64,000 nt of DNA from Actinomycetes bacterium (lineage in GTDB: Bacteria > Actinomycetota > Coriobacteriia > WRKU01 > WQUG01), in NCBI GenBank assembly GCA_031272275.1, contig JAISUC010000012.1, forward strand, positions 2,052 to 66,051. The letters run 5' to 3'. Positions 7,589 to 36,035 of the stretch are shown piece after piece. The number at the start of each line of letters is the position of its first letter. Positions within the stretch are counted from its first letter, which is position 1. The notes beneath the pieces are model-generated. The model was not told the origin of the DNA and did not search any database. It saw only the letters and a program-made list of their open reading frames with translations. Position numbers and translations under genes: made by a program.

Positions 7589-9769
7589 GTGCGATTTTAC
7601 GGGACAACCGCATATCTGCAACTGCCGGATGGAGTGAGCGCGGACGAAGTGGAGGAATCGGTGGTCACGGCATTCCGTGATTCTGTGAGAAGTGCGGCCA
7701 GTGGGGTAACGGATAATTTCTGGTTGGCGAACGACAAGACCTTTCATGTGGCGTTGGGGGCTGCGGCAAAGAGTTGTCCGAGCAAGTACGCAGGCAGGTT
7801 TGTGACAAGCCAACAGATTACCACAGAGGAAAAGTCACGGACTAAAAAGCAGGGTCCATCAATAGGTGTGTGCATGTGGGATAAGCAGGGATTGCCGTAC
7901 GAAGAGGTGTGCTGTTTGCTGCAGGAATTCCTGGAGGAATTCAATGATCCGATGCGCTTTGATCCCCCCGAGGAAATAACGGTTCGAGAATGGAGATCAT
8001 CCTTACGTCGGGCAGACAGGATGCAATTTATCGAAGACGAGTACGAATTGCTTACGGAGCTGGGGTTGGTCGGTCGACACGAAAGGGTTATCCAGTCGAT
8101 CAGCGAGGGCATTATACGCAAGGTGCGCAATAAAAAGGAGCTGTCCCGGTGCGGGGAGGACCTGCTGTGCGGTGAAGACCTGCAGGATGAGTTGGATCGT
8201 GTGTTCCAAGGAGCGGCGACGAAGAATACGGCACGTGTTCAGAGCTTCGGGCATCCGGTGCACTATATGGTGTGCAGTGATGATACTGAGTCAAGGGCAC
8301 AGATACTCAAGATTTTGATGGAGGCGCTGTACCAGAACGGACGAATACAAAGCGCACGGTACCTGAAGATGGACATCGACAAAGAAACTCTATCGAGGGC
8401 GGTGTCGGTTAGCAGCAGAAATGCCAAAGACGATATCGAGGAAGCGCTCGAGCTGGTTTTCAGTATGGCGCAGGGAGGGGTTTTGGCACTGAGGGTCGGC
8501 GAGGACTGTTTTAGGGAGTCGGAGTATGCGTATTTCGGGGCAGGTGTTTTGCCGGTGATATGTCGCTTGATGCGCAAATACCGCCATAAGGTACTGACTA
8601 TAGTACTGATGCCGAACATACACGAAAATATCCGGTCGCTGTTTTTTGAGCAGCTGGGGGCGCTGACTGTCGTGCCGATTCACCAAGTGGGGGTAGGTGT
8701 CGACAGGGCACGCGCGTTTCTGCGCAGACGTGCGCGCGAATTGGACATAGTGCCGAATCGGGCGCTGTACAGGGGCTTGATTGAGGGTCACACGTATAAT
8801 GCGAAAGAGCTGACCGGGCTGTTCGACGAGTGGTATGACAAACGACTGAAAAACGACGTGTTCACCCAGTACGCCGAAGTGTTGCCGGCGCAGAAAAAGT
8901 TGATCAAGCGCGACGCCAAGGGAAATGCTTTCGAAGAGCTGCAGCGCTTGATCGGTTTGTGCGAGGCAAAAGAAACTATTCGTCAAATACTGGATTTTCA
9001 CACGGCGCAGAAACTGTTTCGCGAAAAGGGTTTTGCGGGCGAGCGCCCCGCGATGCATATGGTGTTCACGGGAAATCCCGGTACCGCCAAAACCACGGTT
9101 GCGCGACTGGTTGCGCGTGCCATGAAGGACAACGGCTTGTTGGACGAGGGCAAACTGCATGAAGTGGGGAGGGGGGACTTGGTGGGAAAGTATGTCGGTC
9201 ACACCGCACCGTTGGTCCAGCAGCATTTCAAGGTGGCGAAGGGATCGGTACTGTTTATCGATGAGGCCTACTCGCTGGTTGATGACCGCGATGGAATGTA
9301 TGGAGATGAAGCAATCAACACCATCGTCCAGGAAATGGAGAATCACCGCGAAGATACGGTGGTCATTTTTGCCGGCTATCCGGATAAGATGCAGGGCTTT
9401 TTGGATAAGAACCCGGGCTTGCGTTCGCGGATAGCCTTTCACGTGCACTTTGATGATTACGACGAAAACGAGCTGTACCAAATACTGGAACTGATGGTTA
9501 CGGACCGCAAACAGTGTCTGGGGGAGGGTGTACGCGAGCACGTGCTGCCCCTGTTGGCGCAAGCTCGCGTGGCACCCGGTTTTGGCAACGGTCGCTTTGT
9601 GCGCAATCTGGTGGAGCAAGCGACCTTGCGTCAGTCGACCAGACTGCTCGCACGAAATGCCGAGGATATTTTGCCGCAAGATGTGTTGACACTGTTGCCG
9701 GATGACTTCCGGTTGCCCGCCGAACTACGCAAGAACACGGCAGCCGCCGGTCTGGGGTTCGTGCGATGA
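7589..9769 (+). CDS. CbxX/CfxQ (SpoVK/EccA-like) family AAA+ ATPase with a roughly 450-aa uncharacterised N-terminal region containing a degenerate AAA-like module
   Basis: C-terminal MHMVFTGNPGTAKTTVARL Walker A, VLFIDEAYSL Walker B, CbxX-type helper region. GTG start with GAGAGGGTGG RBS. No recognisable family for the N-terminus. Confidence 0.8.
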   Translation: MRFYGTTAYLQLPDGVSADEVEESVVTAFRDSVRSAASGVTDNFWLANDKTFHVALGAAAKSCPSKYAGRFVTSQQITTEEKSRTKKQGPSIGVCMWDKQGLPYEEVCCLLQEFLEEFNDPMRFDPPEEITVREWRSSLRRADRMQFIEDEYELLTELGLVGRHERVIQSISEGIIRKVRNKKELSRCGEDLLCGEDLQDELDRVFQGAATKNTARVQSFGHPVHYMVCSDDTESRAQILKILMEALYQNGRIQSARYLKMDIDKETLSRAVSVSSRNAKDDIEEALELVFSMAQGGVLALRVGEDCFRESEYAYFGAGVLPVICRLMRKYRHKVLTIVLMPNIHENIRSLFFEQLGALTVVPIHQVGVGVDRARAFLRRRARELDIVPNRALYRGLIEGHTYNAKELTGLFDEWYDKRLKNDVFTQYAEVLPAQKKLIKRDAKGNAFEELQRLIGLCEAKETIRQILDFHTAQKLFREKGFAGERPAMHMVFTGNPGTAKTTVARLVARAMKDNGLLDEGKLHEVGRGDLVGKYVGHTAPLVQQHFKVAKGSVLFIDEAYSLVDDRDGMYGDEAINTIVQEMENHREDTVVIFAGYPDKMQGFLDKNPGLRSRIAFHVHFDDYDENELYQILELMVTDRKQCLGEGVREHVLPLLAQARVAPGFGNGRFVRNLVEQATLRQSTRLLARNAEDILPQDVLTLLPDDFRLPAELRKNTAAAGLGFVR

Positions 9770-10009: not shown

Positions 10010-10372
10010 ATGAGGAAGCTGAGTTTCGATTGGGTGAAACGAACGGATGGGGCCAGCGAGTTCATGGACTTTATGGATGGATTGCCGGTTAAGGATCGGG
10101 CAAAGCTCGCTGCACTGATCACTGCTGTTGAGGAGCACGGCTTGGAGATAGCCAAACGAATGAAGTGGGTGAAGAAACTGGGAGATGGCTTCTTCGAAAT
10201 ACGATCGCGGCAGGCAAGTGATATACAACGAGTGATATATTTTCATGGCTCAGGTAAACAGTGCATTATTACCCACGGTTTCACCAAAAAGAGCGATGTA
10301 ATACCGAAAACGCAGATCGAACGTGCAAAGAACCTTCGTGCAAAATGGCTGGAAGAAAGGGGGCAGAGGTGA
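10010..10372 (+). CDS. higB: HigB-like toxin (phage Gp49/RelE-ParE superfamily)
   Basis: ...YFHGSGKQCIITHGFTKKSDVIPKTQIERAKNL matches the Gp49-like HigB C-terminal pattern. Followed by an overlapping XRE antitoxin gene. Confidence 0.75.
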   Translation: MRKLSFDWVKRTDGASEFMDFMDGLPVKDRAKLAALITAVEEHGLEIAKRMKWVKKLGDGFFEIRSRQASDIQRVIYFHGSGKQCIITHGFTKKSDVIPKTQIERAKNLRAKWLEERGQR

Positions 10373-10650
10373 GTGCGATAAAGGAAATGGTTGAGCAGCA
10401 ATGTGCATCAAGCCCGGAGTTTGCGACTGAGTATCAGCGTGAACGGGAAAGATTGGATGCGGCGGTCGCGTTGATGGAGCTGCGGCGCGAAGAGGGAATG
10501 ACACAACGTCAGTTGGCGGCAGCAACCGGAAAGACGCAGGCGACGATAGCCCGTATCGAAAACGGGAGTATGAACCCCTCGGTTAAGCTGTTGAAAGAAA
10601 TCGCTGTTGCTCTGGACCGCCGTCTGGAGTTTCGGTTCGTGAAGAGCTGA
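10369..10650 (+). CDS. higA: HigA-like XRE-family HTH antitoxin
   Basis: GTG start overlaps the higB stop (GTGA). The protein has an XRE-type HTH (MTQRQLAAATGKTQATIARIENG). Confidence 0.7.
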   Translation: MSAIKEMVEQQCASSPEFATEYQRERERLDAAVALMELRREEGMTQRQLAAATGKTQATIARIENGSMNPSVKLLKEIAVALDRRLEFRFVKS

Positions 10651-10748
10651 TGCGGATAGTTCAGTCCGGGCGGGTGCTCCCCCGACCGGATATGTATTCG
10701 GGTATGTGCCCGCGCATCAACATGCGTCATGCTGAAAATGCGAGCGGA

Positions 10749-10763
10749 GGGACGCACTCCCCC
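10749..10763 (+). repeat. Family 1 15-mer GGGACGCACTCCCCC(CC)
   Basis: Intergenic, downstream of higA. Confidence 0.7.
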
Positions 10764-11121
10764 CCTTGAAACCAAACCGTCGATAGGTTACAGTAGGCAG
10801 GTATCGTTGAAATCGCTTTTCGGTTTCGCCTGCGTGCCGCGGTCGAGCTGTCGCCGGACGGCGCGCGCGAACTAAGAGGGAAGCAGGTGCAAGACCTGCG
10901 CAACCCCCGTTGCCGTAAGTGGTGATGATCCGTGCAGTTTGCCACTGGGGCGCGTTGTCCCGGGAAGGCGCGCGGTATCACATGACCCACAAGCCGGAAG
11001 ACCTGCCGAAAAGCCTCGAAGTATCTGTCTTTCGGCGGGAAAGACCGGGCTGTCCTGAGGTCGATCGCAATCAGGCGCATTCCAGTTCTGACTCCGTCGC
11101 GGACGCGAAGGAGGAACACAG

Positions 11122-12714
11122 ATGCTATACAGAAAGCACAACAATCGGGGGAGTCGGATGTCGGCACCCGGGTTTGTCCTGCACGGTTTGCGGGCACCGC
11201 ACGACGGGCGTGTTCCCGTGATGCCCGTGCGGTCTGTGTGGCGCATGCGGCCCGTGCGGCGGGCCGCCGCGAAACGAGCCGCCGTGGCACGGGTCGCCGC
11301 AGCCTGCGTGCTGTTGGTGTGCGTGGTGTGCGTGGCGGGCGCGATGGGAGCCGCGCCGACATCCGCGCATGCCCGGACAGCAGCGGCCACCGAGTGGGGC
11401 GGATACCGCCGCACGGCGGCAAACAGCGGGGTCACGGCGGCAAAAACCCCGACGTCAAAATCTCGTACGAGGCTGAAATGGTCGCGCAAGCTGGTTGCCG
11501 GCGGTGGCTGGGACGTGCGCGTCTCGGCGCCCATCATCGTGCGTGGCAAGGTGTTCATCGCGCGCAACAATCAGCTGTTGCGCTATAGCAAATCCGGCAA
11601 ACTGGAGAAAACCGTCACCCTGGCGGCACCAATCGGCTATACCTGTTATCCCGGCAGCGGCGACGGCAAGCTGTTCATCCCGCTGGACGGCGGGCGCATC
11701 CAGGCCCTGAGCGCCGCCACCATGAAAAGCAGCTGGGTCAGCGTGTCCGCCAGCATCTCTGCCACCGACACCGCGCAGAGCACTGGCACGGTCACCTATC
11801 GCGCAGGCTACCTGTACAGCAGCTGGGTGCGCGGTGGTGCCACCCCGACTGCCGGCGCGGTGGTCTGCTATAAAACGTCGGCCGGCAGCAACATTGATTC
11901 CGACGGCTACAAACGCCCCGTTTGGACCCACGCCGTCGCCCTGCCGGAAGACGGCGGCACGACCGCCGCCACAACCGCCGGCTACTACAACACCGGCATC
12001 GCGCTGACCCCGAAAGCGGCGCTGTTCGCCGGCGAAGACGGCGTCCTGACCTCGGTCGCGCTGAAAACCGGCAAGGTGCTGTCGACAGTCAAACTGAAAG
12101 CGCCCGTGCGCAGCGCCGTCCTGTTCGTGTCCACCGGCATGGGCTCGACCGGCGTGGCATACGTGTCGACCGCGAACAGCACGACCAACACGGGCAAAAT
12201 CTGGCGCGTCCCGGTCACAAAAACGGGCAAACTGTCCGCCGCTCGGGCCAAATCGGCGAAACTGTCCGCAGGCCCCGGCACTACGGCGCCTGTGCGCTAC
12301 AACAACAAACTGTACGTCGTCAGCGGACAGTCGGGTTTCGCGGCGGGCACGGCCACCGGCACGGGCAAACTGGACACTTTCAACGCGACCACGCTGAAGC
12401 ACAAAAGCACCGTCGACCTGGGCGGTTTCAGCCAGTCCTCGCCGCTGCTGTCGAAAGCACAGGCCACTAAACGCAACGGCAAACGCGCCTATCTGTACGT
12501 CACGCTGAATGACACCACAGACACCATCAAAGTCATCCGCGACAGCGCCAAACAGAAAAAACCGACCGTCGCCACCTTGGCAAAACCGGGTGGCAGCTAT
12601 TCGATGGCCAGCCTGATTGCCGACAAATCGGGTACGCTGTATTACACGTCGTCGGTGACCGACCCGGCGACCTGGTCCACCGACGTCTACCTGCAGGCTC
12701 GCGCGCGCAAATAA
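11122..12714 (+). CDS. Secreted/membrane-anchored PQQ-like beta-propeller repeat protein
   Basis: GAAGGAGGAA RBS. Hydrophobic segment AAACVLLVCVVCVAGAMG. Repeated (G)DGKLF.PLDGG...AL.A.T....W type propeller blades. Gly/Thr-rich. Confidence 0.6.
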   Translation: MLYRKHNNRGSRMSAPGFVLHGLRAPHDGRVPVMPVRSVWRMRPVRRAAAKRAAVARVAAACVLLVCVVCVAGAMGAAPTSAHARTAAATEWGGYRRTAANSGVTAAKTPTSKSRTRLKWSRKLVAGGGWDVRVSAPIIVRGKVFIARNNQLLRYSKSGKLEKTVTLAAPIGYTCYPGSGDGKLFIPLDGGRIQALSAATMKSSWVSVSASISATDTAQSTGTVTYRAGYLYSSWVRGGATPTAGAVVCYKTSAGSNIDSDGYKRPVWTHAVALPEDGGTTAATTAGYYNTGIALTPKAALFAGEDGVLTSVALKTGKVLSTVKLKAPVRSAVLFVSTGMGSTGVAYVSTANSTTNTGKIWRVPVTKTGKLSAARAKSAKLSAGPGTTAPVRYNNKLYVVSGQSGFAAGTATGTGKLDTFNATTLKHKSTVDLGGFSQSSPLLSKAQATKRNGKRAYLYVTLNDTTDTIKVIRDSAKQKKPTVATLAKPGGSYSMASLIADKSGTLYYTSSVTDPATWSTDVYLQARARK

Positions 12715-12772
12715 TGCGGAAACGGACCGACAAAATGCAGGCCGCACGAAACTGACCGTCAGGAGGGGGAGT

Positions 12773-13606
12773 ATGTCCCGCACCATAGCACGAACTGCAC
12801 ACAACCGGACGCCGCAACATCGACGCCCCGAATCGTTAACGCCGACGGCGCCGACGGCGCTGCCTGTGCGACCGGCGTTAGCCGTGTTCCGGGTGCTACT
12901 GCCGGCGCTGTTGCTGCTGCTGTTAATCGGGTGCGTGATGGCGGTGTCCGGCTGCAAAAAGCGCCCGATTGTCGCCACCCCCGACTCGACCGCAGTCACG
13001 ACCGCGACGGCAGACAACGGGCTCAATACGACCGACACCGCAGGCACGGTCCCGTCGTCAACCGTCGCCACGTCGACGGTCAGCACCGCCACCGGCAGCG
13101 CCATCCGCACCGAAACCTATGGCCAAGGTGCAGGCGACGCCCCGTTAACCTGGCAGGACGCGCAACCGACCGCGACGACTCCCCCGACGACCGGCACGAC
13201 CACGGGCACGACGACCGACGGTACCCAACAAACGGTAACCCCTGCGACCTTTCAGGTCACGGTTCAGATTGACTGCAAAACGGCGTACGCGGCAGATCCC
13301 GAAGCAATCGGTGCCCAATGGCGCGCAGGCGTGATACTGGCGTCGACCAAAATCACGGTGACCCAGGGCTCGACCGTCAAAGACCTGCTGGAGGCCACCG
13401 GGCTTTCCCTGAACGCCGCAAACGGTTACGTCCGCGGGATAGCGGGACTGAACGAAAAGGACATGGGCGCGCAATCGGGCTGGGTGTTTTTTGTCAACGG
13501 CAAAGTCCCGTCGCTGGGCTACCACAGCTACGTGCTGAAAAAAGGCGACAAGGTACGCTGGCGCTATACCTGTGACGGCGGTGCGGATATCAATGCGACG
13601 CTGTAG
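12773..13606 (+). CDS. DUF4430-like surface lipoprotein (putative substrate-capture protein for the downstream ECF transporter)
   Basis: Lipobox LLLLLIGCVMAVSGC. Thr-rich linker. C-terminal DCKTAY...WVFFVNGK...GYHSYVLKKGDKVRWRY resembles DUF4430. AGGAGGGGGAG RBS. Confidence 0.6.
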   Translation: MSRTIARTAHNRTPQHRRPESLTPTAPTALPVRPALAVFRVLLPALLLLLLIGCVMAVSGCKKRPIVATPDSTAVTTATADNGLNTTDTAGTVPSSTVATSTVSTATGSAIRTETYGQGAGDAPLTWQDAQPTATTPPTTGTTTGTTTDGTQQTVTPATFQVTVQIDCKTAYAADPEAIGAQWRAGVILASTKITVTQGSTVKDLLEATGLSLNAANGYVRGIAGLNEKDMGAQSGWVFFVNGKVPSLGYHSYVLKKGDKVRWRYTCDGGADINATL

Positions 13607-13664
13607 CACCCGCGCACACATCGGCGTCTGCGCCGACGCCGCCGACGCCGCGGCAGGCGCGTAA

Positions 13665-14573
13665 TTGCCGATGCGCCGCATCGAGCTGATACACCCCGGA
13701 GTCGTCTGTGCGTGGCTGGCAGCCGTGTTGCTGCTGACCATGTGCACACTGCAACCGATGCTGCTGGTCATATCGGTTGTCGCGGCCGCCATCAGTGTTG
13801 CGCTGTGGTGCGGCGCGGCGGCACTGGGCCGCAGCCTGCGGATGCTGGTGCCGGTCGCAGGTGCGGTCATCGCGCTGAATTTCCTGTTCAACCACCGCGG
13901 CATGACCGAGCTGTTCCGGCTGTTCGCGCGTCCCTTTACGCTGCAGGCACTGACCTATGGCGCGTGCATGGCGCTGATGCTGACCGCGCTGGTGCTGTGG
14001 TTTCAGCTGTGGCAACGCGTGCTGGGCCCCGACCGATTTCTGTTCCTGTTCGGCCGCGCCGCGCCCACCACCGCGCTGTTGCTCACGTCGGTCCTGCGCT
14101 GGATACCGCTGATGCAACAACGCTGGCGCCAAATGCAGCTGGCACAGCGCGCATTGTGCCCGGATTGTGCCGTCGTAAACACCAATGCGGGCCGGTACGT
14201 CCCGCCGTCCGCCCGCCGTCCCGGGCGATTGTCGCAACTGCGCGCCATCCTGAACCGGGTGTCGGCCTTGGCGGGCTGGTCATTGGAATCATCGATGCAG
14301 GCGGCCGACAGCATGCGCGCGCGCGGCTACGGGCAGACGCGGCGTCGTGGCAGCTACCGCGCGTATCGTTTTGGGGCGGTGGACGCCTGCTGTCTGGCAC
14401 TGCTGGTGCTGTGCGTTGCGGCGGCGATTCCGGCTGTGGCGGTCAGCCTGCGCAGTCTACATTTCTATCCCGTGTTGCGCGGGGACGTACTCCCCCTGTG
14501 GATGTTGATCGGTCCTGCGTTGCTGAGTGTGTTGCCGGCGGCCATGGAAGGGGCATGCGCGTGGCGGCGGTAA
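13665..14573 (+). CDS. ecfT: ECF transporter transmembrane T component (EcfT/CbiQ family)
   Basis: Multi-pass membrane protein of typical EcfT length with a C-terminal Arg-rich coupling helix region. Confidence 0.7.
   Translation: MPMRRIELIHPGVVCAWLAAVLLLTMCTLQPMLLVISVVAAAISVALWCGAAALGRSLRMLVPVAGAVIALNFLFNHRGMTELFRLFARPFTLQALTYGACMALMLTALVLWFQLWQRVLGPDRFLFLFGRAAPTTALLLTSVLRWIPLMQQRWRQMQLAQRALCPDCAVVNTNAGRYVPPSARRPGRLSQLRAILNRVSALAGWSLESSMQAADSMRARGYGQTRRRGSYRAYRFGAVDACCLALLVLCVAAAIPAVAVSLRSLHFYPVLRGDVLPLWMLIGPALLSVLPAAMEGACAWRR
14482..14496 (+). repeat. Family 1 15-mer GGGACGTACTCCCCC inside the 3' end of ecfT, 59 bp before the ecfA start
   Basis: Read directly. Confidence 0.6.
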
Positions 14574-16264
14574 GCGCGCGGGATTTCGGTTTCGCCTATC
14601 CGGGGCAGGCCACGCCGGTGCTGGACGGCGTGAGCTTTACGGTGCCAGCCGCCGCATTCGTGGCGGTCTGCGGGCCCACGGGCTGCGGGAAATCGACGCT
14701 GCTGCGCCATATGGTGCCGGCGTTGCGGCCGGTGGGGCGGCAGTCGGGCAGTATCGAGGTCGCAGGCTCGGTCGGATTTGTCGCACAAGACCCCGAGGCT
14801 CAGATCGTCTGCGACACCGTGGTGGCGGAACTGGCGTTCGGATCGGAAAACGCGGGACTGGCGACGCCGGTGATACGGCGGCGCGTCAGCGAGGTCGCGA
14901 GCTTTTTCGGGATGGATGCGTGGCTGGAACGATCGGTGCATACGCTGTCGGGCGGGCAGAAACAGATGGTGACCCTGGCGGCGGCGCTGGCGGTTGACCC
15001 GCAGGTATTGGTGCTGGACGAGCCCACCGCGCGTCTGGACCCGATAGCGGCGCAGGCGTTCATTCAGGCGCTGGCGCGCGCCAACGGCGAGCTGGGGTGC
15101 ACGGTGCTTTGTGTCGAGCACCGTCTGGACGAGGTCTTGCCGTTGGCCGATCGGGTGCTGTATCTGCGTGACAGCGGGTGTCGCGCGTTTGCGGATGTGC
15201 AGTCCTTTGTGGGACAGCTGCGCGATGCGGACGACGCGTTTGTGCAGGCGCTGCCCGCGCCCACGCGGGTTGCCGTGGCGGTGGGTGCAGGTGTCGATGG
15301 TTACCCGCTGGACGTGCGGGCCGGGCGCGCGCTGGTGTCTGCCGCGGTGGATGCGGGACGCATTGCGGGCGACGGCGCCGGTGGCGCGCCCCCTGCAGAT
15401 GACCCGACGCCACCGGACAGCACGGCGTGTGCGATCGAAATCCGCGACCTGAGTTTTCGTTATGGCACGGAGAGCGACTGGGTGTTGCGCCGCCTGACCG
15501 GCGGCATTCGTGCGGGCAGCATCCACGCGATTGTCGGGGGCAACGGCGTGGGCAAATCGACGCTGTTCGCGCTGATTTGCGGGGATATGAAACCACAGAT
15601 GGGCCGCATACGGATCCGTGAGGGCCTGCGCCTGGCCGCGTTGGTCCAAAACCCGAAAGCGCTGTTCACGGCAGACACTTTGCGCGGGGAACTGGAAGAA
15701 AAGGTACCCGAGGAAGCACGAGGGGGGGTCTCGCGCGCAGTCCCGCAGACGCGCCTTGGCTACAAGGTGCGTCGAGGACTGTTTGAGCACGTGACCCCCC
15801 CTCGTGCTTCCGAACGCATGACTGCCGTTGAGAGTACCGGTATCGACGGTTTGGTGCGGTCGTTCGGGTTACTCCCCCTGATGGACCGTCACCCCTATGA
15901 CCTGTCAGGGGGTGAACAGCAGCTGGCGGCGCTGGTGAAGGTGCTGGCGCGCGACCCCGACATCGTGTTGCTGGACGAGCCGACCAAGGGGCTCGACGCA
16001 CAGATGAAGGCGCGGCTGGGCGGGGTGTTGCGCGAGCTGAATGCGCAGGGGCGGACCGTGGTGTTCGTGACCCACGACCTGGAGTTTGCCGCCGAATATG
16101 CGCAGGTGTGCAGTCTGTTGGCACAGGGACAGCTGGTCGCGACCGAACCGGTGGCGCGGTTTTTTGACGGCAATCGCTTTTACACGACCGCCGTCAACCG
16201 TATGACGCGCGGGATGGTTCAGGGCTGTGTGACCGTGGACGATTTGGTAGCGCGATGGTCCTGA
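14555..16264 (+). CDS. ecfA: Fused ECF transporter ATPase (EcfA-EcfA' tandem ABC domains)
   Basis: Two Walker A sites (GPTGCGKST and GGNGVGKST), two LSGG signatures, two Walker B sites. ATG at 14555 is in frame 2. The six-frame 850-aa ORF (13712-16264) is an upstream over-extension. Confidence 0.85.
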   Translation: MRVAAVSARDFGFAYPGQATPVLDGVSFTVPAAAFVAVCGPTGCGKSTLLRHMVPALRPVGRQSGSIEVAGSVGFVAQDPEAQIVCDTVVAELAFGSENAGLATPVIRRRVSEVASFFGMDAWLERSVHTLSGGQKQMVTLAAALAVDPQVLVLDEPTARLDPIAAQAFIQALARANGELGCTVLCVEHRLDEVLPLADRVLYLRDSGCRAFADVQSFVGQLRDADDAFVQALPAPTRVAVAVGAGVDGYPLDVRAGRALVSAAVDAGRIAGDGAGGAPPADDPTPPDSTACAIEIRDLSFRYGTESDWVLRRLTGGIRAGSIHAIVGGNGVGKSTLFALICGDMKPQMGRIRIREGLRLAALVQNPKALFTADTLRGELEEKVPEEARGGVSRAVPQTRLGYKVRRGLFEHVTPPRASERMTAVESTGIDGLVRSFGLLPLMDRHPYDLSGGEQQLAALVKVLARDPDIVLLDEPTKGLDAQMKARLGGVLRELNAQGRTVVFVTHDLEFAAEYAQVCSLLAQGQLVATEPVARFFDGNRFYTTAVNRMTRGMVQGCVTVDDLVARWS

Positions 16265-16914
16265 TTACCGCGTTACTTGCGGCCTGCGTTGCGGGGATGC
16301 TGCTGGTGTATCTGGAGCGCGCGCGTCCGCGACCCCGTCAGTTTATGCCGGTTGTGGTGTTGGCGGCGCTGGCGGTGGTGGGGAGAATGCTGTTTGTCGC
16401 GATTCCGAACTTTCAGCCGGCGACGGCGGTGATAATCATCTGTGGCGTGTATTTCGGCGCGTACAGCGGGGCATTATGCGGAGTATTGGTCGCGCTGGTC
16501 TCGAACCTGTTGCTGGGGCAGGGCTTGTGGACGCCCTGGCAGATGCTCGCGTGGGGCGGCGTCGGGCTGGGGGCGGGCTTGCTGTTTTGTCGCAGGTCTG
16601 ACCGGGCAGGCCGGTCAAGCGGCTCAACCGGCCGCACGCAGGGCAGCACGCAGGCGGTGTGGACGGTGTGCGTCTATGGTGTGGTCGCGTCGTTGGCGTA
16701 CGGCATGGTGATGGACACGCAGTACTTTTTCAGCTTCCTGTTGTCCGGGGGCTGGGCGGCGTACGGCACGGCGCTTGCGGCAGGAGCGCTATTCAACTTG
16801 GCGCACGCGGTATCCACCGCCGTTTTTCTGGCGCTGGCACTGAAACCCTGGGGACGTAAGATTCAGCGCCTGATCACCACGTACGACCTGTCCGGTCACT
16901 GTCGTCATCGGTGA
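16255..16914 (+). CDS. ECF transporter substrate-specific (S) component-like membrane protein
   Basis: 219-aa polytopic membrane protein overlapping the ecfA stop. Position and size fit an S component. Confidence 0.55.
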   Translation: MVLITALLAACVAGMLLVYLERARPRPRQFMPVVVLAALAVVGRMLFVAIPNFQPATAVIIICGVYFGAYSGALCGVLVALVSNLLLGQGLWTPWQMLAWGGVGLGAGLLFCRRSDRAGRSSGSTGRTQGSTQAVWTVCVYGVVASLAYGMVMDTQYFFSFLLSGGWAAYGTALAAGALFNLAHAVSTAVFLALALKPWGRKIQRLITTYDLSGHCRHR

Positions 16915-17338
16915 AAAAGGCGCGCCAGTAAACCAGGCTGGACAGCGCCAAGCCCACCGCGACGGTTACGTACAGCGCTCCCATAAAGTGCAGATAGACT
17001 GTGTTTTCCAGCGGTCCCAGATGCCGTAACAGCACGCCTGCGGTTATCATAGCCGCGACAATCACCCAGCTGCGCGGCGCGTACATATTCAGCAACCAGT
17101 CGCGGCCATGTTCACGCGCACGCGCCGCGTTGCGTCGTGCCACCGGGCGCATCATCCAGCGCGCTTTCGCCACACCCAGCACCAGACCTATGACGACCAC
17201 CCACCAGGGCCAGCCGACGCGCCCGATGAACAACACCCCGAACCGGCCGACGAAAAAGGCGCCGATACACCAGACGACCGCCGCCACCAACATTTGGCCG
17301 CGATAGGATACCTGGGGGAACAGTCGCTTGGTATTCAT
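16874..17338 (-). CDS. Hypothetical small membrane protein
   Basis: 154 aa with four hydrophobic segments. No family recognised. Confidence 0.45.
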   Translation of the reverse strand: MNTKRLFPQVSYRGQMLVAAVVWCIGAFFVGRFGVLFIGRVGWPWWVVVIGLVLGVAKARWMMRPVARRNAARAREHGRDWLLNMYAPRSWVIVAAMITAGVLLRHLGPLENTVYLHFMGALYVTVAVGLALSSLVYWRAFFTDDDSDRTGRTW

Positions 17339-17407
17339 ATCAACGATGGTAGCACTTTGCGTGATTGGTCGGGGGTGGTGTCGGGTATCCGGGATGCAGG
17401 ACGGTGC

Positions 17408-26497: not shown

Positions 26498-29400
26498 CTA
26501 ACCGACCGTAGAAGCCGTTGAAACGCTGTCCTGTTTGCGGGTGCCGGTGGCTGCCAGCATCAGCTTGATGCGGTTCAGCTGGTTGACCTCGCTGGCACCC
26601 GGATCGTAATCGATGGCGACGATACCCACCTCGGGGTGCATCCGCTGCAGTTTCCGGAACATGCCCTTGCCGGTCACGTGATTCGGCAGACAGGCGAACG
26701 GCTGCGCGCACACCACCGACGACACGCCCGATTCGATCAGCTCCAGAATCTCTGCGGTCAACAACCATCCCTCGCCGGCACGGTTGCCCAATGACACGAC
26801 CTCTTGTGCCAGCTGAATCATATGCGGAATGTTTCCCGGCTTATAGTAATCGACGCGTGCCGCCTCCATGGCTTTGATGACCGGCTTGCGATACAGCTCC
26901 AGCACCCAGCCCACGCCGCGCTTGAAATGGCGCGACTGCTTGCCGATACCCAGGTTTTCCCAGTCCCATTCGGTGGTGTAAAAGTTCTTACAGAAAAACT
27001 CCATCAAACCGGGCACAGCTACCTCGCAGCCCTCGGCCTCGATGACGTCAACCAGGTTATTGTTCGCATCCGGGTGAAACTTCACCAGTATCTCGCCGAC
27101 GATTCCCACGCGCGGTTTGCGGGCAATGTCGCGCACCTCCAGCGCATCGAAATCGGCGATCAGCTCGTCTATCAGCCCGCGATAACTCGCACGGTAACTG
27201 CCGCTCAAATAGTCTCGGCAGTTCCGGTCCCATTTCCGGTACAGCTCCATCGTGGCGCCGGGGACTGCCTCGTACGGGCGCTGGCGCAACACCACCGACT
27301 GCAACAAATCCCCCAGACAGACCGCCTGCATCACCCGATGCAGCATGCGTGCCGATATCTTGAAGCCCGGGTTTTTCTCCAAGCCCTGCACCGATACCGC
27401 CAACACCGGTACCTGTCCATAGCCGGCCTCTGCCAGGGCTTTGCGCAACAGCGACACATAGTTGGTGGCGCGACACATCCCGCCGGTCTGCGTGATGGCG
27501 ACCGAAGTGTTGTCCGGGTCGTACTGTCCCGATTCGAATGCGCGTACCAGCTGTCCCACAACCATAATCGCCGGGTAACAGGCATCATTGTGTACCGTGC
27601 GCAGCCCCACCTCGACGTCTGCCGGGCTTGCGTGTTTCAGGATCTCCAGCCGGTAGCCTCCCGCACGAAACGCCGCCTCGATCAGCGAGAACTGCACCGG
27701 CGCCATTTGCGGGGCGATAATTGTGTGCTGCGCGCGCATCTCACGGGTAAAGGGGCGGCGTTCGCGCGTATAGGGCTCGAAATCCTCGCTGCTACAGGGC
27801 AGGCGCTCTTCGGCGGCGGCAGCCAGCGAACGCAGGCGGATACGCGCCGTCCCCAAGTTCGAGACCTCGTCGATTTTCAGCGCCGTATAGACCTTTCCCT
27901 GCGCCCGCAGGATTTCTGCGACCTGGTCTGCCGTCACGGCATCCAACCCGCAACCAAAGCTGTTCAGCTGCACCAGTTCCAGGTTCGGGTATTTTCCGAT
28001 GGCATCCGCCGCCGCATACAGACGGCTGTGATACGCCCACTGATCGTGCACGCGCAAGGGCCGCTGCAGGTCCGCCTCTGCGACCAGGCAGTCCTCGCTC
28101 AGCACCGCCATCCCCATCGAACAAATCAGCTCGGGGATGCCGTGGTGGACTTCCGGATCGATATGGTACGGGCGTCCCGCCAACACGACACCGCGCCCGC
28201 CGCGCGCGGCCAGCTCGTCCAAAGCCTCGCGCCCGGCAGCCCGCACATCGGCGTGATAGCGTTCCTGTTCCTCGTATCCCGCCTGGACCGCCGCCCGCGC
28301 CTCGTCAGCCGTCACGTTCCAGTCGGCAAAGACCTCAACCAGACGCTCCGCCAGCTTATCCGGGTTCGCCAGGTTCACGAACGGTTTCAGCAAACGCACG
28401 CCCTGTTCATGCAGACTGGGCATATTCGCATCAATTACCTGCGGGTATTGCGCCACCACCGGACAGTTGTAGTGGTTGTCGGCCCCTTCCACCAGTTCGC
28501 GTTCGTAACTGACGGACGGATACCAAATGGTACGCACGCCGCGCTCGACCAGCTGCTCGATATGACCGTGCACCAGTTTCGCCGGATAGCAGATGTTTTC
28601 AGAAGCAATCGTGTTCATGCCGGCCTCGAACAGGCGATGACTGGACCTGCCCGACAGCACCACGCGAAAGCCCAGTTGCGACAACACGGTAAACCACAGC
28701 GGATAGTTCTCGTACATATTCAGTACGCGCGGCACTCCGATGTCCCCGCGCGGACAGACCTCGCCGGGTGCCTGCCGGTACGCAAACACGCGGTGATACT
28801 TGTAATAGTACAGGTTCGGCAGGTCGCTCCGGTCGCCACCCGATTCGCTCAGCCCTCGGTCGCAGCGGTTGCCGGTCACATAGCGTCCGCCGTCCGGGAA
28901 TTCGTTGATGGTGCGCTTGCAGTGGTTCGGGCACAGGCGGCAGACACTCTGGTGGCTTTTAACCGTCAGCGCCTCCAACTGTTCTTGGGGGAGCATGGTC
29001 GACACGCCGCCGGCAGCCTGTCGGTCACGCGCGATTAACGCGGCCCCGAACGCGCCCATCAGCTCGGCGATATCGGGACGCGCGACCTCGATGCCGCATA
29101 CCAGCTCGAACGCGCGCAGGACCGCGTCGTTTTTGAAGGTCCCGCCCTGCACCATAACGCGCGGACCCAACTGTTTGGGGTCACGCATCTTAATTACCTT
29201 GTACAAGGCATTGCGCACGACCGAATACGACAGTCCCGCCGCAATATCGCCCAGACCGGCGCCTTCTTTCTGGGCCTGTTTGACCGACGAGTTCATAAAC
29301 ACCGTGCAGCGCGATCCCAAATCGACCGGAGAGGCCGAGGAAACGGCGGCGCTGACGAAGTCGTCCAGGGTGACTCCCAATGATTTTGAAAAGGTCTCGA

Positions 29401-30754
29401 GAAATGATCCGCAGCCCGACGAACAGGCCTCGTTCACGCAGATGCTGTCGATGGCGCCGTCGACGATCGACAGGTATTTCATGTCCTGGCCGCCGATGTC
29501 GATAACCGCCGTCACGCCGTCATACAGCTGGTTTGCCGCGCGGAAATGCGCCATCGTTTCGACCTCGCCGGTGTCGGCGTGCAGTGCCGCGCGCAACAGG
29601 CCCTCGCCGTAACCGGTCACACAGCTGCCGGCGATGGTGGCGCGCGGGGGCAGTTGCCTGCGGATTTTCGTCACGATGCGCGCGGCGGCTTTGACTGGAT
29701 CGCCGCCGTTCGAGGTATAGGCGCTGTACAAAATCCGCAGTTGATCGTCCAGCAGGACGGCCTTCATCGTGGTCGAACCGGCGTCGATTCCCAGAAACAC
29801 CGGACCGGACGCGTATGCGATGTCCAGACGCGGTGCGGTCAAGGCGGCGTGGCGTTCCTGAAACGCGGCGTGTTCGGCGTCATCGGCAAACAGCGGACGC
29901 AGGACGGGGACTGTGCGCTGATCGGCGTCTTTCGGGCGTAGCTCGCAGGCGCGCGCCGCCAGGTCGGTCAGCGCGATTTCTGCGCCGTCCGCCAGCTGTG
30001 CCGCACCCCACGCAACCAGCAGCTGGGCGTTATCCGGCAGAATCAACCGTGTCGTTTCGCCGGGCAGGGCGCGGGCGAACGCCGCGCGCAGCTCGGACAG
30101 GAAATACAGCGGACCGCCCAGCAGCAACACCCGCCCGCCGATGGGGCGTCCGCATGCCAGTCCCGCGATAGTCTGCGTGGCTACCGCCTGAAAAATCGAT
30201 GCCGCCAGATCCTCACGCCGCGCTCCGTCGTTCAACAGCGGTTGCAAGTCCGATTTCGCAAACACCCCACAACGCGACGCGATGGGGTACAAAGTCCGGT
30301 ACCGCGCCGCCAGATCGTTCAGACCGGCGGCGTCGGTACCTAACAGCGTGGCCATTTGATCGATAAAGGCACCCGTGCCCCCGGCACAGGTCCCGTTCAT
30401 ACGTTGTTCGGGAATCGCATCCAGATAGATGATTTTGGCGTCTTCGCCCCCCAGCTCGATCACCAGGTCGGCGTCCGGATCCAGCTGTTGGACCGCGGCG
30501 GTTTCGGCAATCACTTCCTGGACAAAGCCGACGTCGATGCGCTCCGCCAAGCCCAGCCCCGCAGACCCGGTGATCGCGACACGCGCGGTCTGTCCGGGAA
30601 ACGCTGCGTCAATTTCCGCCGACAAAGCCGCGAGTTCCGCCTGAATGTCGGCGTTGTGGCGCCGATAGGCGCTGAATAACAATTGATCGGCGTCCGCGTC
30701 CAGCACGACCGCCTTTATCGTGGTTGACCCTATGTCCAGTCCCAGCCGCAGAAT
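26498..30754 (-). CDS. Giant fusion protein of 2-hydroxyacyl-CoA dehydratase-type activase (BadF/BadG/BcrA/BcrD ATPase) and dehydratase HgdB-like domains (about 1400 aa)
   Basis: Two activase ATPase modules (DIGSTTIK, GIDAGSTTMK, IDIGGQD) plus Cys-containing dehydratase-like domains. The first canonical start (GTG 30706) lies after the conserved LGLDIGSTTIK phosphate-binding motif, so initiation is probably at ATT (30754) or CTG (30751), with AAGGAG at 30765-30770. Confidence 0.75.
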   Translation of the reverse strand: MLRLGLDIGSTTIKAVVLDADADQLLFSAYRRHNADIQAELAALSAEIDAAFPGQTARVAITGSAGLGLAERIDVGFVQEVIAETAAVQQLDPDADLVIELGGEDAKIIYLDAIPEQRMNGTCAGGTGAFIDQMATLLGTDAAGLNDLAARYRTLYPIASRCGVFAKSDLQPLLNDGARREDLAASIFQAVATQTIAGLACGRPIGGRVLLLGGPLYFLSELRAAFARALPGETTRLILPDNAQLLVAWGAAQLADGAEIALTDLAARACELRPKDADQRTVPVLRPLFADDAEHAAFQERHAALTAPRLDIAYASGPVFLGIDAGSTTMKAVLLDDQLRILYSAYTSNGGDPVKAAARIVTKIRRQLPPRATIAGSCVTGYGEGLLRAALHADTGEVETMAHFRAANQLYDGVTAVIDIGGQDMKYLSIVDGAIDSICVNEACSSGCGSFLETFSKSLGVTLDDFVSAAVSSASPVDLGSRCTVFMNSSVKQAQKEGAGLGDIAAGLSYSVVRNALYKVIKMRDPKQLGPRVMVQGGTFKNDAVLRAFELVCGIEVARPDIAELMGAFGAALIARDRQAAGGVSTMLPQEQLEALTVKSHQSVCRLCPNHCKRTINEFPDGGRYVTGNRCDRGLSESGGDRSDLPNLYYYKYHRVFAYRQAPGEVCPRGDIGVPRVLNMYENYPLWFTVLSQLGFRVVLSGRSSHRLFEAGMNTIASENICYPAKLVHGHIEQLVERGVRTIWYPSVSYERELVEGADNHYNCPVVAQYPQVIDANMPSLHEQGVRLLKPFVNLANPDKLAERLVEVFADWNVTADEARAAVQAGYEEQERYHADVRAAGREALDELAARGGRGVVLAGRPYHIDPEVHHGIPELICSMGMAVLSEDCLVAEADLQRPLRVHDQWAYHSRLYAAADAIGKYPNLELVQLNSFGCGLDAVTADQVAEILRAQGKVYTALKIDEVSNLGTARIRLRSLAAAAEERLPCSSEDFEPYTRERRPFTREMRAQHTIIAPQMAPVQFSLIEAAFRAGGYRLEILKHASPADVEVGLRTVHNDACYPAIMVVGQLVRAFESGQYDPDNTSVAITQTGGMCRATNYVSLLRKALAEAGYGQVPVLAVSVQGLEKNPGFKISARMLHRVMQAVCLGDLLQSVVLRQRPYEAVPGATMELYRKWDRNCRDYLSGSYRASYRGLIDELIADFDALEVRDIARKPRVGIVGEILVKFHPDANNNLVDVIEAEGCEVAVPGLMEFFCKNFYTTEWDWENLGIGKQSRHFKRGVGWVLELYRKPVIKAMEAARVDYYKPGNIPHMIQLAQEVVSLGNRAGEGWLLTAEILELIESGVSSVVCAQPFACLPNHVTGKGMFRKLQRMHPEVGIVAIDYDPGASEVNQLNRIKLMLAATGTRKQDSVSTASTVG

Positions 30755-31703: not shown

Positions 31704-32288
31704 ATGCGTCGAGCGAACACGATTACCGAAAGGGGCGTTGCCGTGAAAGGCTTTACCAGTGACCCAAACCGCAGAAAAACCCTCATCGCCTTGGCGTGCG
31801 GTGTGTTGGCGGCCCTCTGCGTGACGCTCTATAACGCCTCACAGGCGGCCGCCTATAACCGGGCACGCGCGCAGCTGGCTGCCGGCGCGACTGCCGGACA
31901 CGTTGACACGTCGGCCGGCACGACAGACACCGCCGGGTATGGCGACGGTGTGCAGACATCCGACTCCCCCGCAACAGATCCCATATTTGCGACGCTGGAT
32001 ACGGGCATGACCGCCGTGACCCTGTCGACCGACGCCGTGCATGCGTTGGGCGGACAGTTGGCGGCCGACATGCGGGTGACTTTGATGGGTGCGTTGGATG
32101 ACGGGCGGGTTGCGGATTTGGCGCGCGACGTGCGGGTGTTGGCGACGGACGGCGCGGGCAGCGCGGTCAGCACCGTGACTTTGGCGATTCCCGACGGGCA
32201 GGTGTCACAGATTTTGGCCGCGGCGAATGCGAACACGGTCTATTTGGTCTATCCCGGGACGTTCGACGGCGTCGAGGACGCGCAGTGA
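31704..32288 (+). CDS. cpaB: CpaB/RcpC-like Flp pilus assembly protein (short form)
   Basis: N-terminal TM anchor then a Thr/Ala-rich region and a C-terminal beta-clip/SAF-like region. First gene of the tad locus. Alternative GTG start at 31743 with GAAAGGGG RBS. Confidence 0.5.
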   Translation: MRRANTITERGVAVKGFTSDPNRRKTLIALACGVLAALCVTLYNASQAAAYNRARAQLAAGATAGHVDTSAGTTDTAGYGDGVQTSDSPATDPIFATLDTGMTAVTLSTDAVHALGGQLAADMRVTLMGALDDGRVADLARDVRVLATDGAGSAVSTVTLAIPDGQVSQILAAANANTVYLVYPGTFDGVEDAQ

Positions 32289-33592
32289 TGCCCGATCTGT
32301 TTGGGGATAGTGCCGTCGGAGCCACGCCGGGTGCCGATGAACGCTGGGATTTGGTTGTTGTCAGTTCCGACCGGCGTTTTCCGCTGGATGTGACTGCGCT
32401 GATGCGCCGGGGTGTGGTGCGTATTGCACGGACCTTTTATTCCGGGGCGGAATGTCTGCGGGCGCTGGAACTGGAGGACGCAGGTACGGCTGGTGCCGGA
32501 GGCGGGGGCGGGGTCTGCCGGGTGGTGCTGATTGACGGCATCGTGTCCGATATCGCGCCGAACAATCTGTGTGATGCCCTGCGTCGTCGATGTGCGACGG
32601 CTGCGGTGGTCATGGTTATCGAAGAGCGCGACGTCGCATCCGTCGAGCGCGCCATGCGTGCCGGTGCCGCCGCAACCATCGCGCGCCACGCCGGGCTGGA
32701 GGAACTGCACGAGGTGGTCTGCCGCGTCATCGAACGGCAGCGGGGATTCGCCGGCGGCAGTGCGGGGGTGGGTGCGCATGCGCTGCATTATGGGACTGAC
32801 GGGGTGTTTGTGCCGGTGGTGGGTTCGCGCGGCGGTGCGGGCAGGTCGACCATTGCGGCGGGGCTCGCGTTGCTGGCGGCTGAACGCGGGGTGGACGTGG
32901 CCTTGCTGGACGCCGATTTGCAGTTCGGTGACATGGGGTTTTTGTTCGGTGCACGCATGCACGCGACGCTGCTGGAACTGGATCGGGCTTTGACGTCGGG
33001 TGGCGTGTCCGCGCGCAGTTTCGGCTTGGCGGTCGACGAGCATCTGACGCTGTACATTCCCCAGACTGAACCGGAAAAAGAAGATCTGCTGACCGGGCGG
33101 ATGCAGCCGATTTGCGAGGCGCTGCGTTGCGAACACCAGCTGGTGATTGCAAATTCCTGCTCGCACTGGACGGTTGCAACCGGAGAGCTGGTCGAGGCCG
33201 CGGATCTGGCGTTGGTCGTCTGCGATCGCACGATGATCGGCATGCGTGCGACTAAGAGCCTGTTCGGGATGTTGCGGCGACTGGGGATTGCGCGCGCAAA
33301 GTTGGTGACGGTGATGAACCGTGCCGACGGCAGCCAGATGAGCACCGATGAAGCCCGCGAGCTGTTGTCGGTCGACGAACTGCAGCTGGTACGCGAGCTG
33401 ACGGGACGCGAAAAGCGTCTGCTGGACTATGCGGAGTTGCGGGAATTATTTGATCGTCCCGGTCAGTTGGCGGCCGACCTGGCGCTGCTGCTGGACGAGG
33501 TGGCATCCCGCAGCAGTCTGAATATCGCAGGCGTCGGTCTGGTTCGTCAGAGCATGCAGCAAACGCGGCACCTGTTTAGGAGGAATCGATGA
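32285..33592 (+). CDS. tadZ: TadZ/CpaE-family pilus assembly ATPase-like protein (receiver-like N-domain plus MinD/ParA-like domain)
   Basis: Deviant Walker A VVGSRGGAGRSTIAAGLA and the LDADLQFGD motif typical of CpaE/TadZ. Confidence 0.75.
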   Translation: MMPDLFGDSAVGATPGADERWDLVVVSSDRRFPLDVTALMRRGVVRIARTFYSGAECLRALELEDAGTAGAGGGGGVCRVVLIDGIVSDIAPNNLCDALRRRCATAAVVMVIEERDVASVERAMRAGAAATIARHAGLEELHEVVCRVIERQRGFAGGSAGVGAHALHYGTDGVFVPVVGSRGGAGRSTIAAGLALLAAERGVDVALLDADLQFGDMGFLFGARMHATLLELDRALTSGGVSARSFGLAVDEHLTLYIPQTEPEKEDLLTGRMQPICEALRCEHQLVIANSCSHWTVATGELVEAADLALVVCDRTMIGMRATKSLFGMLRRLGIARAKLVTVMNRADGSQMSTDEARELLSVDELQLVRELTGREKRLLDYAELRELFDRPGQLAADLALLLDEVASRSSLNIAGVGLVRQSMQQTRHLFRRNR

Positions 33593-35013: not shown

Positions 35014-36035
35014 TAACCGCGGCACTGTGGATAGTCGCCGCTGTCGCGACGGGCGTCTGTGTGGTATGCGGGGTGGCAGCCCTGTGCGATGTAATTGACC
35101 GGCAACGCGACCATGCGGCGGCACGTCGCTCGCAGGCGCGCCTGCGCGGAAACGGCGGGGACGGTGACCCCCGCAGCTGCACCGGGCACCGCCACGCGGG
35201 TCAGCCGGCAGATTCCCCGACGGGTGTACGCGCATTTTTCGCCCGCCCGCCGCTGCGTCGCCCGGTGTTTTCGACGATGCTGGGACACACGCGCCTATGG
35301 CGCCTTTACCACCGCACCCTGACGCGCGCCGGGCTGAACGCCCATGCGGAGGCCTGGGCACAGTGGTACGTGCTGGGCGCGCTGCTCTTGCTGCTGACGG
35401 CTAGTGCCGCGTCTTCCCCGGCACTGGCGGTCATCCTGTTGGCGGCGCTTACGGTGACGCTTGCGATGCTGCTGTCCGGGGCGGTCGATCGGGCACACCA
35501 ACAGCTGCGCGAACAGCTGCCCCAGATGCTCGATGCGCTGGTGGCGGCTCTGCGCGCGGGACTGTCGTTTCCCCAAGCGATTGACACGGTCACCGCCGAC
35601 ACACAGGGACGGATGCACGAAATCCTGCAAAACCTACAGGCAGATCTTGCCGTCGGGCGCGATCTGGGTCGCGCGTTTCAGGCGGCCGCCACAGCCAGCG
35701 AACTGCGCGAGTTCACCTTTGTCGCAACCGCCGCAGCCGTCGTTTCACGCGTCGGCGGCGATGCTCCGCAGCTGTTTGAAAACTGTGCGGCATTGGTCAG
35801 GCAGGACCTCGCGCTTAACCGCTCGCTCAAGGCTCAGACCGCCCAGGGCAGGCTCTCGGTTCGCATGATCGCCATTGTGCCCGCCATCCTCATCGCCATC
35901 ATGTCCTGCGCCATGCCGGGTTACCTGGGTGTTTGGCTGCATTCAACGGTCGGCCGCGTAGCCTTTGCCTTTGCCTTGCTGCTGTTGTTGACGGGCTTTC
36001 TCTGGGTCCGCCGGGTGGTGCGCGTCGATGTCTAG
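35007..36035 (+). CDS. tadB: TadB (GspF-like inner-membrane platform protein)
   Basis: T2SSF-domain membrane protein. The start overlaps the tadA stop (ATGTTGA). Confidence 0.75.
   Translation: MLITAALWIVAAVATGVCVVCGVAALCDVIDRQRDHAAARRSQARLRGNGGDGDPRSCTGHRHAGQPADSPTGVRAFFARPPLRRPVFSTMLGHTRLWRLYHRTLTRAGLNAHAEAWAQWYVLGALLLLLTASAASSPALAVILLAALTVTLAMLLSGAVDRAHQQLREQLPQMLDALVAALRAGLSFPQAIDTVTADTQGRMHEILQNLQADLAVGRDLGRAFQAAATASELREFTFVATAAAVVSRVGGDAPQLFENCAALVRQDLALNRSLKAQTAQGRLSVRMIAIVPAILIAIMSCAMPGYLGVWLHSTVGRVAFAFALLLLLTGFLWVRRVVRVDV

Follow-up and report, generated by a model that had tools for sequence, protein, structure and literature searches.

What does an operon import that places a secreted beta-propeller protein and a DUF4430 lipoprotein directly in front of a complete energy-coupling factor (ECF) transporter, and what would the propeller contribute to that import? 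This question is raised by five genes in a stretch of 64,000 nucleotides (nt) of contig JAISUC010000012.1 (assembly GCA_031272275.1, 'Actinomycetes bacterium'), which was analysed at its full length and is referred to here as the window. In a preliminary description of the locus, it was guessed that a corrinoid is captured outside the cell and fed to the ECF transporter. This guess is now supported by a cobalamin riboswitch directly upstream of the genes and by an S component that is assigned to the CbrT family. The operon, which comes from a Gram-positive bacterium, very probably encodes a B12-riboswitch-controlled importer of cobamides of the ECF-CbrT kind. Taken as a whole, the locus is best read as a B12-repressed ECF-CbrT cobamide importer with an extracellular capture pair formed by the propeller and the DUF4430 protein, and this fuller reading is considered likely. 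One part of it is more finely balanced, namely that the propeller is the second half of the corrinoid binder and replaces the alpha/alpha-toroid protein of related operons; the chances of this proposal, which draws on linkage, gene fusion and mutual exclusion, are about even.

The cobalamin riboswitch and its leader

In an Rfam scan of the whole window, a cobalamin riboswitch aptamer (RF00174) was found directly upstream of the first gene (Table 1). It scores 115.2 bits (E=3.8e-28), where the gathering threshold is 31.5. The model is covered over its whole length (positions 1-189 of 189), the B12 box AGCCGGAAGACCUGCC is part of the alignment, and the first start codon lies about 100 nt downstream. 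Such a riboswitch had been named as something to look for in the preliminary description, which missed this one, located outside its coordinates. A covariance model built in the course of this work (R1) gives the same element 120.9 bits, a score that is not independent because the window sequence went into building the model.

A promoter-like site precedes the riboswitch by 10 nt and is the only sigma-70-like site in 10600-17400, a region in which a mean of 1.1 is expected by chance. Its assignment as the promoter of the operon, made from its position relative to the riboswitch, is suggestive. Downstream of the aptamer, the putative expression platform is predicted to fold into a hairpin that ties up GGAG, a part of the Shine-Dalgarno sequence AAGGAGG, by pairing it with CUCC, and no intrinsic terminator was found there in a site scan. 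The riboswitch would probably act by occluding the ribosome-binding site.

The ECF transporter

The genes for the S component, EcfT and the ATPase are adjacent with overlapping ends and form one operon. The ATPase contains two ABC_tran domains (PF00005 twice, E=1e-45), and its best NCBIfam models are the ECF_ATPase models TIGR04520 and TIGR04521 (E ~1e-77); the scores are below the equivalog cut-offs, as is expected for an EcfA-EcfA' fusion. The S component is matched by PF12822 ECF_trnsprt (36.6 bits, cut-off 30.7) and PF07155 (36.9 bits, cut-off 26.7), and also by PF20221 (DUF6580). These Pfam and NCBIfam matches agree with the preliminary description, in which a fused ecfA-A' and an S-component-like gene were recognized.

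The substrate is indicated by the S component. When it was searched against all PDB sequences with phmmer, the sole significant match was 6FNP_A, CbrT of Lactobacillus delbrueckii (E=2.6e-9). When 14 S components of related loci were combined into a profile (A7), it matched nearly the whole chain of 6FNP_A (E=3.6e-23), followed by 4HZU_S (1.1e-5) and RibU (8.7e-3). CbrT binds and transports cobalamin and cobinamide (PMC5997447). On sequence similarity, the S component of the window belongs to the CbrT (cobalamin) family, and cobalamin or cobinamide transport is predicted. A different substrate family, which would have spoken against corrinoid import, was not encountered among the significant PDB relatives, of which CbrT is the only one.

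The gene between the DUF4430 and ATPase genes is the most divergent of the three. Its product has no direct Pfam, NCBIfam or PDB sequence match, and neither Pfam CbiQ nor PDB EcfT sequences are reached even at E up to 10. It is 28% identical to the T protein of a related locus (L006) that carries PF02361 CbiQ (BLASTP E=6e-23). In addition, an Ala-Arg-Gly-type motif (ADSMRARGY) can be read from the sequence, and the gene keeps its place between DUF4430 and AA' in dozens of related loci. Through this transitive homology, conserved position and motif, the product is treated, indirectly, as a divergent EcfT.

The DUF4430 lipoprotein

The second protein of the operon ends in a DUF4430 domain (PF14478; 55.2 bits, cut-off 23.8, E=9.9e-15) that covers profile positions 1-71 of 72. 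Its N-terminus has a hydrophobic segment ending in the lipobox AVSG-C, whose G-C column is conserved in homologues, and its linker of about 110 amino acids (aa) is rich in Thr, Ala and Pro and disordered, with a predicted local distance difference test (pLDDT) value below 50. Vertebrate transcobalamins carry DUF4430 at their C-terminus (PMC4350170). In a Foldseek search of the PDB with a low-confidence model (pLDDT 50.8), the top 19 matches were haptocorrin, transcobalamin (including the isolated beta domain), intrinsic factor and 3U7Z of Ruminococcus gnavus, at E 1e-4 to 3e-3. These fold matches, obtained with a low-confidence model, point to the same resemblance of DUF4430 proteins to transcobalamin-like proteins that was noted in the preliminary description. 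The link to B12-type ECF systems, which was called established there, is thin in print, although the association is strongly supported by the loci surveyed here. Family and context argue strongly that the lipoprotein captures a corrinoid outside the membrane.

The propeller protein

The first protein of the operon was modelled from 14 homologues (pLDDT 84, predicted template modelling score 0.83) with eight blades. The closest structures in Foldseek are YxaL, BamB, pyrroloquinoline quinone (PQQ)-dependent methanol dehydrogenases and tetrathionate hydrolase (E ~1e-13), and the family profile finds BamB among PDB sequences at E=1.8e-9. The N-terminus consists of a long region with a hydrophobic signal segment and a cleavage-like site (AHA-R); neither a lipobox nor an LPXTG/sortase motif is present. 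By profile and predicted fold, the protein is a secreted eight-bladed propeller of the PQQ_2/BamB/YxaL type, in line with its first reading as a secreted PQQ-like beta-propeller, with which the model, the profile and the signal-like N-terminus agree.

Two more specific identities were considered and rejected. A role as a PQQ-dependent dehydrogenase is contradicted by the lack of a PF01011 match and by the closest folds, which are the small non-enzymatic YxaL and BamB. A parallel to the propeller BtuG of Bacteroides, drawn in the preliminary description, holds for a propeller fold in a B12-riboswitch context; homology to BtuG does not hold, as no BtuG chain was matched at E up to 10 by phmmer or by the profile against PDB sequences, and no BtuG-related Pfam family was found.

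Linkage of the propeller to DUF4430 and B12 riboswitches

A full HMMER scan with the propeller gave 914 representative homologues, where a word-index search had given only the protein itself and one relative. Many of the homologues are domains within very large surface proteins. DUF4430 is present in the same polypeptide in 46 of the 150 best representative homologues, as counted with a hidden Markov model (HMM) built from Pfam-verified DUF4430 domains, and Pfam confirms the fusion in P0005, P0014 and P0016. Where the propeller is encoded by its own gene, the pairing recurs on contigs: for each of the six homologues that could be located on contigs, a DUF4430 gene comes after the propeller gene; these are P0002 (loci L001-L004), P0038 (L089), P0003 (L091), P0004 (L092), P0006 (L093) and P0009 (L094). 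The same order is found in L026 and in Caproiciproducens galactitolivorans (L005), the one locus given by a scan of genome contigs. L007 and L041 have their DUF4430 gene on the opposite side of the propeller gene or a few genes away. With the window, L001, L005, L007, L026, L041, L089, L091, L092, L093 (two) and L094, this makes 12 propeller-DUF4430 pairs. The GC content of these loci ranges from 0.39 to about 0.6, so they do not represent one lineage.

A cobalamin riboswitch was found by Rfam on the same strand directly upstream of nine of the 11 assessable pairs (the window, L001, L007, L026, L089, L091, L092 and both units of L093); L094 was left out of this count because too little upstream sequence is available. 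The model R1, in which no more than 9 base pairs were retained, did not detect the riboswitch of L092, which Rfam found later. A riboswitch lead in L041 from a regular expression was false, inside an open reading frame (ORF), and was rejected. In L026, L089 and L091 (to the contig end), the pair is followed by the ECF genes in the order of the window (propeller, DUF4430, T, AA', S), and the order is permuted in L007. Because this order recurs in unrelated metagenomic and genomic loci, the five-gene arrangement is not a chance juxtaposition. Chance adjacency of the propeller gene was considered and rejected.

Two of the loci present settings of their own. In L093 (89-10218, GCA_031553035.1), two units of riboswitch, propeller and DUF4430 lie about 7 kb apart in one genome, and in one of them fn3-containing proteins are encoded between propeller and DUF4430. 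By analogy with the multiple Btu loci of Bacteroides, this double unit suggests paralogous capture modules. In L094 (2973-7219, GCA_031280075.1), the pair adjoins genes resembling a pyrrolysine set, with PylD_N, an ATP-grasp protein, a radical SAM enzyme and a class II tRNA synthetase. Since corrinoid proteins are partners of the methylamine methyltransferases that depend on pyrrolysine, this neighbourhood may be another B12-related context.

The alpha-toroid alternative in wider DUF4430 loci

A metagenome scan with a DUF4430 alignment gave 80 loci, which together with the earlier loci and the window fall into 43 clusters. Their usual layout is a riboswitch followed by genes for a variable protein, DUF4430, T, AA' and a CbrT-like S component. 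Of the 22 clusters for which 3 kb or more of upstream sequence is available, 15 have a B12 riboswitch on the same strand. In most loci the variable protein has weak, consistent Pfam matches to prenyltransferase/squalene-hopene-cyclase alpha/alpha toroids. The alpha domain of transcobalamin has this alpha/alpha-toroid fold. When four of these proteins were used to build an HMM, it detected a toroid partner in 20 of the 43 clusters; the same HMM finds none in any of the 12 propeller loci or in the whole window, so that propeller and toroid are mutually exclusive in the loci surveyed. Because of this layout and the absence of the toroid wherever the propeller is present, the window is a propeller variant of a common B12-regulated system, in which a split transcobalamin-like pair is combined with an ECF-CbrT importer.

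Other arrangements of DUF4430 were also observed. In L060 (5520-8456), a 978-aa protein encoded behind a cobalamin riboswitch combines an alpha-toroid-like region, DUF4430 and three S-layer-homology (SLH) domains; such a protein would amount to a complete binder of the transcobalamin type, held at the cell wall by the SLH domains. In L008 (1224-2738), a surface-protein tail with Flg_new repeats is encoded ahead of a DUF4430 lipoprotein gene, which is followed by a gene for a RACo-type reductive activator of corrinoid proteins with Fer2, RACo linker, middle and C-terminal domains. Cobalamin riboswitches on the opposite strand lie divergent from the operon in L039 (3077-3264, minus strand) and downstream in L059 (7199-7413, minus strand); owing to their orientation, they presumably control a neighbouring gene and not the DUF4430 operon.

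Proposed mechanism

In the proposed mechanism, the leader riboswitch would turn the operon down when intracellular B12 is sufficient, and the five proteins would be made when B12 is scarce. The divergent EcfT, the fused EcfAA' and the CbrT-type S component would assemble into a dedicated (group I) ECF importer for the ATP-driven uptake of cobalamin or cobinamide. The lipid anchor would hold the DUF4430 domain outside the membrane on its long flexible linker. The secreted propeller would pair with it, and the pair would capture the corrinoid in the wall zone and pass it to the S component, with the propeller playing the part of the alpha/alpha-toroid protein in most related operons.

A broader proposal is held more tentatively and is given slightly less than an even chance. 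According to this proposal, propeller and DUF4430 would form a widespread, so far unrecognized class of extracellular cobamide binders in Gram-positive bacteria, made as two genes, as a fusion or within surface proteins of up to about 3000 residues. The propeller face would supply the toroid's half of the ligand pocket, as a non-orthologous replacement within a transcobalamin-like binder, and the propeller would be the third independent one to bind B12 after BtuG and BtuK.

Alternative explanations

Several observations weigh against the preferred reading. The propeller of the window has no significant Pfam match (the best, DUF5074, is below the cut-off at E ~1e-3), and the AlphaFold2 model of the DUF4430 protein, built from a 4-sequence alignment, is of low confidence. 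The leader hairpin has a z-score of -1.35 and is not distinguished from shuffled sequence, so translational control is suggested and no more. The pairs in L005 and L041 have no riboswitch by Rfam. ECF genes are lacking next to six of the 12 pairs, and a seventh locus is not long enough to tell; the pair can therefore act with a transporter from another locus or fulfil a broader function. B12-dependent enzymes, which the preliminary description had proposed to look for elsewhere in the genome, were not found in the window: a scan of about 30 other large ORFs in the window gave neither such an enzyme nor a cob/cbi gene. Finally, the only homologous operon that has been studied experimentally, lsa1836-1840 of Lactobacillus sakei, is reported as a heme importer.

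The main rival concerns the propeller. It could be a BamB-like docking platform or scaffold that makes no contact with the corrinoid and holds the DUF4430 lipoprotein at the S component or in the cell wall, or it could strip B12 from the binding proteins of competitors. Such a role is judged unlikely, given that the propeller is mutually exclusive with the alpha-toroid and that the transcobalamin alpha domain forms half of the ligand pocket. Moreover, the propellers BtuG and BtuK1 bind B12 directly on the propeller face (PMC13616437).

Two further rivals change the substrate. Import of heme or another tetrapyrrole would follow the precedent of L. sakei, where the same architecture (S, AA', T, transcobalamin-beta-like and -alpha-like proteins) is tied to heme uptake (bioRxiv 10.1101/864751). 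However, the operon of the window, like those of most related loci, is preceded by a cobalamin riboswitch; it has neither a heme-responsive element nor a gene for heme degradation beside it, and its S component is a homologue of CbrT, in which hemin does not compete with cobalamin or inhibit transport (PMC5997447), which makes heme a very improbable substrate. A CbiMNQO-type cobalt or nickel ECF system under B12 control, supplying cobalt for corrin synthesis, has in its favour the good scores of the ATPase with models that bear the name 'cobalt transporter ATP-binding subunit'. B12 riboswitches also commonly control cobalt transporters. Yet these ATPase matches are generic to ECF ATPases and below equivalog cut-offs, genes for CbiM and CbiN are absent, the S component resembles CbrT and not CbiM, and the uptake of an ion would leave extracellular proteins of the transcobalamin type without a task; of all the explanations weighed, this is the most remote. 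Together, the riboswitch and the relationship to CbrT make both heme and cobalt uptake unlikely and favour cobamide import.

Operon layout and genomic neighbourhood

Five ORFs, all on the plus strand, were confirmed at 11122-16914 of the window. The intergenic gaps are 58-64 nt, the T/A and A/S junctions overlap by 19 and 10 nt, respectively, and a site scan found no terminator-like sites in the gaps. The co-directional arrangement with small gaps and overlaps that had been described at the outset for the propeller, DUF4430 lipoprotein, ecfT, fused ecfA-A' and S-like genes is thereby confirmed. The coordinates of these and other features are listed in Table 1.

Table 1. Features of the operon, its leader and other parts of the window, in order of position.
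Feature	Position	Strand	Details
Mobile/defence-looking genes	2801-6515	-	ADP-ribosyltransferase exoenzyme-like, RhuM-family and DUF2779 proteins
SpoVK/CbbX-type AAA protein	7589-9769	+	
Gp49/HigB-like toxin (PF05973) and HTH_3 antitoxin-like gene	10010-10650	+	mutually overlapping
Promoter-like site	10766-10794	+	TTGAAA, 17 nt spacer, TACAGT; consensus scan
Cobalamin riboswitch aptamer (RF00174)	10804-11024	+	Rfam scan of whole window
Putative expression platform	11025-11121	+	predicted minimum-free-energy fold
Beta-propeller gene	11122-12714	+	530 aa
DUF4430 lipoprotein gene	12773-13606	+	277 aa
Divergent EcfT gene (candidate)	13665-14573	+	302 aa
Fused EcfAA' ATPase gene	14555-16264	+	569 aa; real start inside longer ORF
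S component gene	16255-16914	+	219 aa
Protein with two BcrAD_BadFG ATPase domains and DUF2229	26498-30706	-	1402 aa
Tad/Flp-type pilus block	32285-36765	+	CpaE-like ParA ATPase, T2SSE ATPase, two T2SSF membrane proteins
Urease beta	51343-51705		
Urease alpha-subunit gene	51717-53438	+	
5_ureB_sRNA (Helicobacter) match	51870-52167	-	Rfam, 149.9 bits; antisense inside urease alpha-subunit gene
Ammonium transporter	53712-54956		

The starts of the first two genes differ between annotations. Strong Shine-Dalgarno sequences lie 7 nt ahead of the ATG at 11122 (AAGGAGG) and 6 nt ahead of the ATG at 12773 (AGGAGG), and the Logan gene calls, with proteins of 530 and 277 aa, agree with these upstream starts. 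In the JGI and NCBI annotations, the propeller starts at 11245 or later (489 or 476 aa) and the DUF4430 gene starts late, at 12884 (240 aa). With the upstream starts, about 40-50 aa precede the hydrophobic signal segment in both proteins, which is unusually long. Identical proteins are deposited as MDR1775442.1 and MDR1775443.1 from the metagenome-assembled genome 'Actinomycetes bacterium', with the labels 'hypothetical protein' and 'DUF4430 domain-containing protein'.

Upstream, the operon is bounded by the toxin and antitoxin-like genes, which stand directly before the riboswitch promoter. Its downstream neighbours are a convergent membrane-protein ORF and a MacAB-type efflux system. Further away, the 1402-aa protein has the domain pattern typical of CoA-enzyme activases, which activate enzymes like 2-hydroxyacyl-CoA dehydratase. 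The 5_ureB_sRNA match is most likely due to the conserved coding sequence of urease rather than to a small RNA.

Significance and comparison with known systems

In the gut and in other anaerobic habitats, communities are shaped by the competition for cobamides. Extracellular cobamide capture is known in detail only for Bacteroides, with BtuG, BtuH, BtuJ and BtuK, and in Gram-positive bacteria it was called 'entirely uncharacterized' in a 2026 review (PMC13616437; likewise PMC8941943). In the open-access literature, no report was found on DUF4430 in bacterial B12 uptake or on a PQQ-like propeller linked to a cobalamin riboswitch outside Bacteroides. Within that literature, the transporter and its regulation are of a known kind, and the propeller is not previously described as a component of B12 uptake. 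The loci described here provide a parts list for Gram-positive bacteria: a riboswitch-controlled dedicated ECF-CbrT transporter, a DUF4430 lipoprotein and a toroid or propeller partner. If the pair does bind corrinoids, hundreds of large 'hypothetical' surface proteins would gain a function, and the transcobalamin architecture could be rebuilt with a different second half.

The closest relative of the transporter is ECF-CbrT of L. delbrueckii (6FNP; Santos et al. 2018, PMC5997447). The S components are homologous over nearly their full length, an architecture of two ATPases and an EcfT, the latter assigned indirectly in the window, is shared, and both systems are predicted or shown to be B12-related. 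In L. delbrueckii, however, CbrT belongs to group II: it uses a shared general ECF module and is encoded in an nrdJ-cbrS-cbrT-pduO cluster, whereas the module of the window is dedicated (group I). The fused ATPases, a putative EcfT too divergent for Pfam CbiQ, the two extracellular proteins and the riboswitch set the operon of the window apart from it.

Among extracellular binders, the vertebrate transcobalamin, haptocorrin and intrinsic factor have a beta domain of which DUF4430 is the probable counterpart, and they share the idea of two parts closing on a corrinoid. In these proteins, a single chain contains both the beta domain and a toroidal alpha domain; here, separate genes are used and the partner is a propeller. 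BtuG and BtuK1 of Bacteroides thetaiotaomicron are likewise extracellular beta-propellers from B12-riboswitch-regulated uptake loci, and BtuGH consists of a propeller fused to a second B12-binding domain (PMC13616437). BtuG is a seven-bladed lipoprotein that caps the TonB-dependent BtuB, whereas the propeller of the window has eight blades and no lipobox and does not qualify as a BtuG. The nearest folds, YxaL, BamB and Rv3035, are 13-16% identical to it, and none of them is linked to B12, DUF4430 or ECF transporters.

The most similar operon as a whole is lsa1836-1840 of L. sakei, which has been linked experimentally to heme uptake. In the open-access literature it was the only ECF operon found to be described as encoding exported proteins that resemble the alpha and beta domains of transcobalamin; the beta-like protein was described by its similarity to the transcobalamin beta domain, and the name DUF4430 was not used (bioRxiv 10.1101/864751). 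Both operons encode an S component, a fused AA', a T protein and an exported transcobalamin-beta-like protein, and both would combine extracellular capture with hand-off to the S component. The second exported protein is an alpha-toroid there (Lsa1839/Lsa1840-type pair) and an eight-bladed propeller here, and heme uptake there stands against a cobalamin riboswitch here; the heme reading of the L. sakei operon may need revisiting.

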